In this document: one piece after another, positions 1 to 1,427 of the stretch
How the letters are laid out: the number at the start of each line of letters is the position of its first letter
Position numbering within the stretch: position 1 is the stretch's first letter
Origin: a virus
Taxonomy: Duplodnaviria; Heunggongvirae; Uroviricota; Caudoviricetes
IMG/VR virus record: IMGVR_UViG_2713896785_000014
Strand: one strand, 5' to 3'
Length of the DNA stretch: 6,858 bases
Notes under the pieces: generated by a model
What the model saw: the letters and a program-made list of their open reading frames with translations, nothing else
The model's database searches: none
What the model was told of the DNA's origin: nothing
Translations under genes and position numbers: made by a program

Positions 1-254
1 GTGCGGGACGGACGCGGTGGGCGTTCGGAGTAAGGAAGCCTGACGGAGATTATCCAGTGACGATAATCGAGACTGAGGGCTTTCTTAACCTCGTATCCGC
101 GCCTGCGGTAATACTGAATCAGCCATTCAGCCTGTTCTTCGGTGCAGGGGTCGTGCTGATACCAGTCAGATTTGAATGCATGAGAACGCCGCCCGTGCCT
201 GCTGGCAGGGGCGGCAGAGTTATCCGAATTGTAAAATTTGGTATCGTGCGCCAT
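1..254 (-). CDS. hypothetical prophage protein, N-terminal part only (gene runs off the left edge of the window)
   Basis: Minus-strand ATG at 254..252 followed by an open frame to position 1 (84 codons: MAHDTKFYNSDNSAAPASRHGRRSHAFKSDWYQHDPCTEEQAEWLIQYYRRRGYEVKKALSLDYRHWIISVRLPYSERPP...). Composition is protein-like, whereas the listed plus-strand ORF 57..380 is Pro/Gly/Arg-rich and looks like its antisense shadow. Absent from the ORF track because no stop lies inside the window. Start codon uncertain; family not recognised. Confidence 0.4.
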   Translation of the reverse strand, partial: MAHDTKFYNSDNSAAPASRHGRRSHAFKSDWYQHDPCTEEQAEWLIQYYRRRGYEVKKALSLDYRHWIISVRLPYSERPPRPSR

Positions 255-321
255 CTGTTTTCTCTGCTGGCGCAGCAGGTGCCAGTTGTTCAGGCTGACG
301 GATGGATTGTAAACCAGAACG

Positions 322-353
322 ACCAGAAAAAACAAAACCCGCCGAAGCGGGTT
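322..353 (-). terminator. rho-independent terminator (minus-strand transcription)
   Basis: Minus-strand RNA reads AACCCGC-UUCG-GCGGGUU (7-bp GC-rich stem, UUCG loop; plus coords 336..353) followed directly by UUUUGUUUUUUCUGG (plus 322..335). Confidence 0.6.
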
Positions 354-451
354 AAGTGCGGGTGCGTTGAGGATGCCTGACACATCAGCGGTGGCGAGGG
401 ATTTCTCCCCCGCCTGGTCTCTTACTCCTCAGGTTCGTAAGCTGTGAAGAC

Positions 452-521
452 NNNNNNNNNNNNNNNNNNNNNNNNNNNNNNNNNNNNNNNNNNNNNNNNN
501 NNNNNNNNNNNNNNNNNNNNN
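452..521. other. run of 70 N (masked or unresolved sequence)
   Basis: Literal n characters in the sequence; content unknowable from this window. Confidence 0.95.
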
Positions 522-628
522 TGGCATGCCCGAGGCAGACAGCCTCAAGCACCCGCAGCAATTCTACTTAACTCTCGCTTTACAGCAAACCGTTTTGCCC
601 GATATGGGAATTCCCATACGGAATGAAT

Positions 629-733
629 TCAGTTCCCCAGGCGCTCCATCAAAAACACAACCAGGCAGTAAACACCCACAACAGCAATAACAGCCAGAGC
701 GCCTTCCATTACCAGTGAAATATCATCCGACAT
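629..733 (-). CDS. small hydrophobic peptide (34 aa, one predicted transmembrane helix)
   Basis: ATG 733..731, TGA 631..629; protein MSDDISLVMEGALAVIAVVGVYCLVVFLMERLGN. Shine-Dalgarno AAGGGAGGGAAT immediately before the ATG. Candidate minus-strand promoter: -35 TTGCTA (plus 813..818), 18-bp spacer, -10 TATATG (plus 789..794). Below the 60-aa cutoff of the ORF track. Confidence 0.4.
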   Translation of the reverse strand: MSDDISLVMEGALAVIAVVGVYCLVVFLMERLGN

Positions 734-842
734 ATTCCCTCCCTTGGTGTGAATCCCGGCGAACGTTTTTACCCCCACCGACAAATAACATATACTAGAA
801 AAGCAATAGCTATAGCAACGCCTGCAAATGCATCTGGCCGGC

Positions 843-1427
843 TCATTGGTTCTCCCCCTGTGTCGCTTCTACTGCGATCTGACTGGCGTATTCGTTAATG
901 GTAACGATAAGTTCTTGCTCGGCCTCATCCAGACAACTACCGATACCTCGCCTGTCCACTTCAGAAGCATCGAAATCTGCACGAAGCCTGGCGACCTTCA
1001 GGATTGCGGACAACACCTCATCAGGGATTGCCGGAGAGTTGGTTGACGTTTCCGAGATTATCCGAAAATTATTGGTTGACGAACCCTTATTTTCCCGAAA
1101 GTTTCCAGCCTGAAGCATGGCGGNNNNNNNNNNNNNNNNNNNNNNNNNNNNNNNNNNNNNNNNNNNNNNNNNNGCCATATCCCATGCCATGTATTCTCTA
1201 TCGCCATTTTTTGCTCTGCGGCGATCTACAGATTCCCCGAAACGCTTCTCCATAAATAATTCATAGGCTGCCCGTTCATCCGATACTGATGCCAGTGATG
1301 CCAGTGCAATTTTTAATGCGGTAAGCATGTTGTTTTGATCTTCATCGAGTCCGAACGGTATTTCATCCCGTGATGACTCAATTCCGGTAATCGTGTACTG
1401 TAGCCATTCTTTGGTTAATTCAGTCAT
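843..1427 (-). CDS. hypothetical protein; reading frame passes through the masked N-run 1124..1173
   Basis: ORF track 843..1427, ATG at 1427..1425 (MTELTKEWLQYTITGIESSRDEIPFGLDEDQNNMLTALKIALASLASVSDERAAYELFMEKRFGESVDRRRAKNGDREYMAWDM...). Both flanks of the gap look protein-like, but continuity across the 50 N cannot be verified, so this could be one gene or two. No conventional Shine-Dalgarno; the start overlaps the stop of a 28-codon upstream ORF (ATGA). Confidence 0.45.
   Translation of the reverse strand: MTELTKEWLQYTITGIESSRDEIPFGLDEDQNNMLTALKIALASLASVSDERAAYELFMEKRFGESVDRRRAKNGDREYMAWDMXXXXXXXXXXXXXXXXXXAMLQAGNFRENKGSSTNNFRIISETSTNSPAIPDEVLSAILKVARLRADFDASEVDRRGIGSCLDEAEQELIVTINEYASQIAVEATQGENQ
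1124..1173. other. run of 50 N (masked or unresolved sequence) inside an ORF
   Basis: Literal n characters; 50 is not a multiple of 3, so the frame relation across it is only nominal. Confidence 0.95.

Follow-up and report, generated by a model that had tools for sequence, protein, structure and literature searches.

ORF2, a conserved single-helix membrane microprotein gene beside the hok/sok cassette of lambdoid Escherichia coli prophages

The stretch of DNA analysed here (IMG/VR record IMGVR_UViG_2713896785_000014, Caudoviricetes; 6,858 nucleotides, referred to as the window) corresponds to the immunity and early-right part of a lambdoid Escherichia coli prophage. On its minus strand, at positions 629–733 including the stop codon, it contains ORF2, a genuine protein-coding gene of this prophage which encodes a 34-residue membrane microprotein with a single helix. 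ORF2 is the second of two tandem micro-ORFs (very small open reading frames), following the translationally coupled ORF1 of 25–27 residues, and is itself followed by a hok/sok toxin cassette. On balance of the evidence its product may be a tolerated, non-lethal inner-membrane microprotein that modulates a larger membrane protein, a reading to which we assign a probability of about 0.5. The existence of ORF2 is not new: the gene was already annotated and a paralog was seen by ribosome profiling in 2017, so that the novelty in this respect is modest. The new content consists of the definition of the family, ORF1, the hok-proximal pattern and a large unannotated subfamily.

The ORF2 gene, its family and its translation

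The ATG start codon of ORF2 is located at 733–731 and its TGA stop codon at 631–629, both on the minus strand, giving the 34-residue product MSDDISLVMEGALAVIAVVGVYCLVVFLMERLGN. The Shine-Dalgarno (SD) sequence AAGGGAGGG (737–745, minus strand) has its GGAGG core 4 nucleotides from the ATG, and is kept as AA[AG]GGAGGG in every copy of the subfamily to which ORF2 belongs (subfamily A). Residues 13–29 are hydrophobic, with a summed Hessa ΔG of −3.0 kcal/mol and a mean Kyte-Doolittle value of 2.95, and are flanked by an N-terminal tail with a net charge of −3 (D3, D4, E10) and the C-terminal tail ERLGN. An AlphaFold2 model, built from an 11-sequence alignment, consists of one helix comprising residues 3–33, with a mean predicted local distance difference test score (pLDDT) of 88. 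With its length of less than 60 residues and its hydrophobicity, ORF2 belongs to the small hydrophobic membrane peptides. The start codon, the strong SD sequence, the hydrophobic core and the acidic N-terminus were all found as claimed in a preliminary description of the window, and its interpretation as a single-helix membrane peptide gene of a prophage is borne out by frame conservation, the transmembrane segment and the modelled helix.

The preliminary description also placed the gene among those missed by ORF callers. This is not so for ORF2, since the Prokaryotic Genome Annotation Pipeline (PGAP) calls exactly this frame, under WP_001278460.1, as a hypothetical protein; ORF1 and the short subfamily described below, on the other hand, are indeed missed. 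Variants of ORF2 are called by PGAP in other prophages (WP_001278450, WP_001278454 and WP_001278459), and in UniRef and NCBI the variants occur on ∼1000 contigs each, all labelled 'hypothetical protein'.

Comparison of the copies indicates that the ORF2 frame is under purifying selection in both subfamilies. ORF2 is always intact at 34 residues (84 of 84 loci; 139 copies overall). The 11 haplotypes of subfamily A contain 11 synonymous and 7 nonsynonymous segregating changes, corresponding to a ratio of nonsynonymous to synonymous polymorphism (pN/pS) of 0.23 (binomial p = 0.002), and the 139-copy set agrees with this value. All seven nonsynonymous changes are conservative (I/L, A/V, M/I, I/V, A/S, D/E and L/M). 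Stop codons are present in all five other frames of subfamily A, and no alternative frame is both stop-free and constrained. In the second subfamily, B, there are 17 synonymous versus 8 nonsynonymous changes, with 18 of the 25 located at codon position 3 (pN/pS 0.17, p = 1.3e-5). Between the two subfamilies the nonsynonymous divergence (dN) is 0.33–0.40, while the synonymous divergence (dS) is at or beyond saturation. Among the ∼200 copies of both subfamilies zero stops are present; rare variants are frameshifted, truncated or fused. The check proposed in the preliminary description, conservation of the frame in relatives with synonymous changes prevailing over nonsynonymous ones, thus speaks for the gene.

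The family was explored with the 51-residue extended frame, a natural 74-residue fusion (P0008) and degenerate DNA patterns as queries. Its members are defined by a length of 29–34 residues, the core ALA[VI]xAVxx[VI]YCLxx[VF]LM[DE]R[LF][GS][ND], a strong SD sequence and a location in an Escherichia or Shigella lambdoid prophage or on a pINV plasmid. The window peptide has this core, and is 91–97% identical to the relatives P0012 and P0013 and ∼50% to subfamily B. A phmmer search of 1.84 billion representatives yields merely 6 close relatives of ORF2. Subfamily B, revealed by tblastn and showing ∼50% identity to A, consists of peptides of 29–30 residues with the pattern (M/V)VLVLK[CG]ALAI[AT]AV[MV]AIYCLA[VI]VLM[DE]R[LF]SD, preceded by the SD sequence CAGGAGG and starting with GTG or ATG. 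It is carried by the phages mEp460_ev081, Tritos and Evi, by Shigella pINV plasmids (137 records) and by some E. coli plasmids. The peptide P0014, from the divergent gut-metagenome lineage L247, bridges the subfamilies by combining an A-type N-terminus with a B-like core.

Of 5426 complete E. coli genomes, 1847, among them BL21(DE3), match a 201-nucleotide subfamily-B probe at a length coverage of at least 80%, and no coding sequence (CDS) is annotated for the peptide in any of the matches listed. Unannotated B homologs include L089 2495–2587, L093 3024–3113 and L092 3058–3147, with phage mEp460_ev081 and BL21(DE3) among the carriers. The subfamily-A module is present in 673 genomes, at up to 6 places per genome. 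Among GTDB species representatives the degenerate pattern gives 33 matches, versus ∼35 estimated by chance; the real carriers are only E. albertii, E. ruysiae and S. flexneri, and a scan of the same representatives with P0008 confirmed nothing. The ORF2 family is confined to Escherichia and Shigella prophages and pINV plasmids.

Translation has been detected for a near-identical paralog, XECs145 of O157:H7 Sakai, which a ribosome-profiling study presented as a novel small gene that is translated (Huecker et al. 2017, PLoS One, PMC5597208). The XECs145 product is listed as MCYLSVGVKTFAGIHTKGGN-MSDDISLAMEGALAVIAVVGVYCLVVFLMDRLGN (PMC5597208), and its last 34 residues correspond to the ORF2 peptide with two substitutions (V8A and E30D; 32 of 34 identical). 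It was published with a longer, upstream start giving 54 residues, at which no SD sequence was found; the pipeline of the authors classed it as 'real' and placed it, by prediction, in the inner membrane (PMC5597208). In LB (lysogeny broth) XECs145 shows a transcriptome signal of 79 reads per kilobase per million (RPKM), a translatome signal of 346 RPKM, a ribosome coverage value (RCV) of 4.35 and a coverage of 0.99; the corresponding values are 121 RPKM, 150, 1.14 and 0.84 in the brain-heart infusion (BHI) control, and 73.3 RPKM, 1.1, 0.01 and 0.37 in BHI under cold and osmotic stress (PMC5597208). For short annotated genes the mean RCV is 1.55 in LB and 0.55 in BHI (PMC5597208). The preliminary description had named the failure to detect translation as a refutation; for the near-identical paralog, translation is seen. 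In addition, the presence of 79–121 RPKM of RNA together with translation in uninduced cultures implies that some lysogen-active transcription exists.

In the current Sakai RefSeq annotation the 34-residue form is ECs_5710, situated in prophage Sp6 with a DUF551 gene on one side and mok/hok on the other. ECs_5710 thus shares with ORF2 both the family and the position in front of mok/hok, but lies in a different prophage behind a different upstream gene than the window copy. Function, family analysis, ORF1 and hok linkage are not described in the XECs145 publication.

Possible functions of the ORF2 peptide

As a modulator of a larger membrane protein, the peptide would be made from its strong SD sequence, would insert into the inner membrane via residues ∼11–29 and would exert a non-lethal effect by helix-helix binding, in the manner of AcrZ, MgrB, MgtS and KdpF. 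The likeliest targets of such a prophage peptide would be envelope proteins tied to phage entry or lysis timing. Expression would be expected in the lysogen, and also after induction as a result of read-through from pR. The preference for this reading stems from the weakening of the case for a type I toxin, because the paralog is well translated, the RNA shows no special structure (the ORF1-ORF2 mRNA folds no better than shuffles, z = 0.35), and no antisense partner emerges from Rfam or from the promoter scan: the one Rfam family matched at a permissive threshold is sok, whose pairing partner is the hok leader downstream, and antisense promoters do not exceed chance. The candidate 'toxic or regulatory membrane peptide' of the preliminary description is therefore retained in its regulatory half, which is possible and preferred, and weakened in its toxic half.

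Several observations speak against a modulator role. The near-constant position beside hok could signal a hok-related role. Searches of Pfam, NCBIfam, PHROGs and PADLOC reveal no homolog of known function for either ORF2 subfamily; the best sub-cutoff family matches, ATP synthase subunit c (E = 0.053) and Cmr5 (E = 0.027), are noise. The flank charges also differ, the N-terminal tail carrying −3 in subfamily A and +1 in subfamily B, which has −1 in its C-terminal tail. In view of these opposite charges the two subfamilies may differ in topology, a difficulty for any model with a specific helix-helix partner. Furthermore, the profiling evidence concerns a paralog with two different residues, encoded in another strain by a prophage region present in several copies and published with a start placed too far upstream, and spontaneous induction is a possible source of its signal.

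The linkage to hok is close, yet not obligatory. Every subfamily-A locus with enough sequence is contiguous with hok at a fixed spacing, whatever the upstream gene, and in 50 of 59 subfamily-B loci the stop codon lies 8 nucleotides from the hok −35 element (TTGGCG-17-TAGAAT), with the hok leader at +50. Some 120 hokD-type loci were fetched from IMG/VR via the hok leader alone, with class counts that are partly inferred from locus numbering: ∼58 carry ORF2, while 19 further loci (19/79) contain an ORF1-type peptide alone, M[TS]WPEAF.TVGIAMAVALVVYSICRWG, which ends 8 nucleotides from the hok −35 element. The remainder comprise 14 loci with only the palindrome described below, 27 with neither feature and 2 that are too short to be classified. 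Conversely, at least 7 subfamily-B loci with at least 448 nucleotides of downstream sequence possess an intact ORF and no hok. At L169 5145–5234 and six similar B loci a GC-rich hairpin and a convergent 120-residue gene take the place of hok, and the peptide gene thus persists without the toxin cassette. The pINV plasmid pWR100 has kept the ORF with a remnant of the hok leader only, and hok loci without ORF2 exist, as do Stx phages with hokW and without the ORF. As ORF2 is separable from hok, its function is probably not strictly Hok-dependent.

Against this background we consider it unlikely, although it is the main rival of the modulator reading, that ORF2 (perhaps together with ORF1) acts as a protein-level third component of prophage hokD/sok cassettes, either dampening leaky Hok in the lysogen or setting the timing of Hok-assisted lysis together with Hok. 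The fixed spacing to hok in subfamily A, the 8-nucleotide junction in subfamily B and the share of hokD loci in which ORF2 or, immediately ahead of the hok promoter, an ORF1-like peptide is encoded all fit such a role, and a shared ORF2-hok transcript is possible, there being no terminator between the two. However, the adjacency may reflect inheritance and not function, each of the two elements occurs without the other, and type I systems are not known to have a protein antitoxin. The lysis-related version is in line with the finding that prophage hokW/sokW assists lysis and phage release (PMC8621323), but the characterised hok/sok systems, including hokW/sokW of Sp5, where this ORF is absent, work without such a peptide. 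In a broader form of the idea, hokD-type cassettes would be three- or four-part modules in which ORF2 and/or ORF1-type micro-transmembrane peptides act on Hok at the protein level; this we hold to be improbable. Within such a module the peptide could counteract Hok in the lysogen while embedded in the membrane, or serve as a co-factor in the timing of Hok-assisted lysis. If true, a protein partner would thereby be described for a type I toxin for the first time.

It is likewise improbable that ORF2 is itself a small toxic peptide, i.e., a type I toxin or a lysis- or holin-like membrane-damaging peptide, and a classical type I toxin is unlikely. In size, single hydrophobic helix and prophage location the peptide does resemble Hok, Ldr, TisB, Ibs, ShoB and ZorO; moreover, it adjoins a real type I toxin locus, and the basic N-terminal tail of subfamily B gives it a charge layout like that of Hok. 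Type I toxins are, however, normally kept translationally silent, whereas healthy cultures in LB and BHI translate the paralog efficiently; the ribosome binding site of ORF2 is strong and exposed. No Rfam antisense family and no toxin family matches the locus and the peptide, respectively, and HOK_GEF (PF01848) gives no Pfam match for ORF2 of subfamily A or B at E ≤ 1. Nor does the location favour a holin: ORF2 belongs to the early operon and not to the lysis cassette, as the class II holin and YdfR genes lie >6 kb downstream, past Q.

Finally, the peptide as such might be irrelevant, the ORF being a translated leader or spacer that serves the hok promoter or transcript, or a decaying remnant. 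The 8 nucleotides between the subfamily-B stop codon and the hok −35 element would suit a spacer, as would the observation that loci lacking ORF2 share hok homology from the last codons of ORF2 onwards, and the rare frameshifted, truncated and fused variants would suit decay. This explanation is nevertheless very improbable in view of the selection at the amino-acid level, with its conservative hydrophobic replacements, third-position changes and lack of stops in ∼200 copies, and in view of the retention of the ORF at loci where hok is gone. A tolerated inner-membrane microprotein with a modulatory role remains the reading that we prefer.

The hok/sok neighbour, ORF1 and the operon

The window is 100% identical to the Shiga toxin-producing E. 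coli (STEC) chromosome of strain 2013C-3264 and 99.6% to that of O157:H7 PV15-279. Its plus strand encodes a LexA/CI-type repressor, and its minus strand Cro, a YdaT-like protein, the O/DnaT-like and P replication proteins, a DUF1627 protein and several hypothetical proteins, with hokD, DUF968, RusA and Q following downstream of these minus-strand genes. The early-right (replication/nin) operon has ORF2 at its 3′ end, in the orientation shared by the whole operon. Two runs of N in the window (452–521 and 1124–1173) mask real DNA, and their lengths differ from those of the DNA replaced. Since window positions 1–451 and 522–1123 correspond to 6288–6738 and 7001–7602 of the unmasked homolog L001, the 70 N at 452–521 represent 262 nucleotides of real DNA. 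These contain most of hokD and of the sok/mok leader, and the key neighbour of ORF2 is therefore not visible in the window. The 50 N at 1124–1173 replace 29 nucleotides. They partly mask the gene upstream of ORF1 and ORF2 (843–1406 with the PGAP start, minus strand), which encodes a 187-residue hypothetical protein and is swapped for DUF551 genes in other prophages, with the ORF1-ORF2-hok arrangement unchanged.

What remains visible of the hok cassette, all on the minus strand, comprises the promoter TTGCTG-16-TAGAAT (561–588, located by means of the 5′ boundary of the Rfam match), the 5′ end of the mRNA leader (522–554, Rfam sok model RF01794; the rest lies under the N run at 452–521) and the 3′ end of the hokD CDS (422–451, encoding ...VFTAYEPEE and the stop). 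In the unmasked homolog, RF01794 matches L001 7033–6859 with 114.9 bits and HOK_GEF is matched with E = 1.2e-23. The RF01794 match puts the transcription start of hok at approximately window position 554, 74 nucleotides past the ORF2 stop codon. A terminator scan reveals none between ORF2 and hok, the sole intrinsic terminator of the region being that of the hok transcript (336–353, minus strand), the first downstream of ORF2; as a consequence, ORF2 transcripts should continue into hok. A sub-threshold Rfam match to the Salmonella prophage small RNA (sRNA) IsrK (27 bits versus a gathering score of 50) lies over the 3′ end of the hok transcript and its terminator, at L001 6619–6700 (minus strand; window 332–413), and recurs in mEp460 and BL21.

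Between ORF2 and the hok promoter lies the 16-bp perfect palindrome TATGGGAATTCCCATA (603–618), the sole one of its kind in the window (0.11 expected by chance). It was present as stated in the preliminary description, which had described it as following the peptide gene; it travels with hok. The palindrome is kept with hok even at loci without the 34-residue ORF, and in the short subfamily the ORF is present and the palindrome absent. At hokD loci with paa in place of ORF1 and ORF2, homology sets in again at the final two ORF2 codons and extends over the palindrome, which thus marks the upstream edge of the hok cassette and is not a feature of ORF2. A role as the ORF2 terminator was rejected, as the palindrome has no U-tract and accompanies hok rather than ORF2. 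A short direct repeat flanks the segment of ORF2 plus palindrome, with GGGGTAAAAACGT at the ORF1 stop codon and GGGCAAAACGGT just before the hok −35 element (window 762–772 and 590–600, minus strand); the ORF1-only loci read ...TGGGGATAAAAACGGTTTGC. This layout suggests an insertion or deletion of the ORF2 segment between the direct repeats.

A further observation concerns plasmid pWR100 of Shigella flexneri M90T (L090 2498–2624), in which the intact subfamily-B ORF (MLVLKGTLAIAAVMTIYCLIVVLMERFSD) is followed on its 3′ side by a hok-type promoter (TTGGCG-18-TAGAAT) and ∼60 nucleotides of degenerate hok leader. This remnant lies ∼220–250 nucleotides upstream of the icsP start codon, and part of the icsP upstream region may, as judged from the resemblance, be derived from a hok cassette.

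ORF1 (769–846, minus strand) encodes the 25-residue hydrophobic peptide MSRPDAFAGVAIAIAFLVYVICRWG. Its ATG overlaps the stop codon of the upstream gene (ATGA), its SD-like sequence GGGGGAG (852–858, minus strand) lies within the end of that gene, and ORF1 is reported 36 nucleotides upstream of the SD region of ORF2. Homology between prophages starts exactly at the junction of the upstream gene and ORF1: whether the upstream gene encodes the 187-residue protein, a DUF551 protein or a third protein (L247), CCAATGA and ORF1 are kept. Forms of 25 and 27 residues, an in-frame 6-nucleotide indel apart, occur, and 80 of the 84 loci have an intact ORF1. STEC copies vary too little for selection on ORF1 to be tested, and comparison with the L247 form (MTLPDAFAIVGITIAIAIIVYSICRWL) gives a dN/dS of 0.12–0.24 at a synonymous difference (pS) of 0.60–0.73. 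The conservation of the junction and of ORF1 across prophages, together with this ratio, suggests that ORF1 is probably also a real gene. ORF1 is rarely annotated, and has no match in Pfam, NCBIfam, PHROGs or PADLOC. The possibility that ORF1 and ORF2 are paralogs was considered and rejected, their likeness being merely one of hydrophobic low complexity.

With ORF1 in front and the hok/sok cassette behind, ORF2 is not the stand-alone gene of the preliminary description, and the promoter ascribed to it finds little support. The proposed hexamers TTGCTA (818–813) and TATATG (794–789), with a spacing of 18 nucleotides (789–818, minus strand), lie inside ORF1 and match in 8 of 12 positions, the −10 element lacking the conserved final T. 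They were not called by the promoter scan, which gave a total of 3 for the region versus 2.0 ± 1.4 in shuffles, and are absent from the divergent relative L247. In subfamily A, ORF2 most likely shares its transcript with ORF1 and the upstream genes rather than having a promoter of its own. A conserved private promoter for subfamily B, TTGAAT-17-CATATT, was considered and rejected: it scores below the threshold of the scan, and its hexamers show no better conservation than the spacer. A promoter-like sequence TTTACC-17-TATACT is present on the plus strand at window 768–796, antisense to the ORF1 start and directed away from ORF2, with the scan total at chance.

The ORF1 stop codon region contains a run of five G residues (TGGGGGTAA; window 771–783, minus strand), and one additional G puts ORF1 in frame with ORF2. 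Fusions of ORF1 and ORF2 into 74-residue, two-helix products (P0008 and P0009) occur in a few assemblies. Programmed −1 frameshifting at this run was rejected: neither the G run nor the frame relation is conserved, and in L247 the two ORFs share a frame with a TAA between them. Because no conserved recoding signal exists, the fusions are probably mutations or homopolymer errors.

Relation to known systems and significance

The Hok/Gef toxins (hokD/sokD and hokW/sokW) are likewise small single-helix inner-membrane peptides of lambdoid prophages. They differ from ORF2 in sequence, without homology, HOK_GEF matching the neighbour HokD and not ORF2. Moreover, a mok-like overlapping frame, a structured leader and a Sok-like antisense RNA are all lacking in ORF2, which, as its paralog indicates, is translated in normal growth. 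With Ibs, ShoB, Ldr, TisB, DinQ and ZorO the peptide shares a length in the range of 19–35 residues, a very hydrophobic single helix and a narrow taxonomic range; in contrast to these toxins, no antisense or divergent sRNA partner is detected, no long structured 5′ untranslated region is present and the paralog is tolerated when well translated.

AcrZ, MgrB, MgtS, KdpF, PmrR and CydX are non-toxic proteins of 29–49 residues with one helix which bind larger membrane proteins. They provide the functional model for ORF2, to which they are alike in size, single helix and expression in growing cells. Unlike them, ORF2 is borne by prophages and plasmids rather than located in the core genome or beside the operon of a target, and no homology exists. 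The morons and superinfection-exclusion proteins of prophages, such as the membrane protein gp15 of HK97, are lysogen-expressed accessory products of the inner membrane, as is proposed for ORF2. Classical morons have their own promoter and terminator, whereas neither is demonstrable for ORF2 by the promoter scan or in the palindrome hairpin, which lacks a U-tract. ORF2 occupies a cargo hot-spot between the replication genes and Q which elsewhere contains paa, ImmA/HTH, YgiW or relBE. That an accessory prophage product can act at the inner membrane is illustrated by DicB, which acts on ManYZ (PMC6832061). Full-text literature searches with accessions and peptide strings gave no main-text mention of the ORF2 family.

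About one third of complete E. coli genomes, BL21(DE3) being one of them, carry the short subfamily without annotation, as do Shigella virulence plasmids. Should the peptides have no measurable effect, they would represent one more conserved small ORF. If, on the other hand, they modulate Hok, phage entry or lysis timing, they would provide a cheap example of how prophage microproteins shape the membrane physiology of their host.

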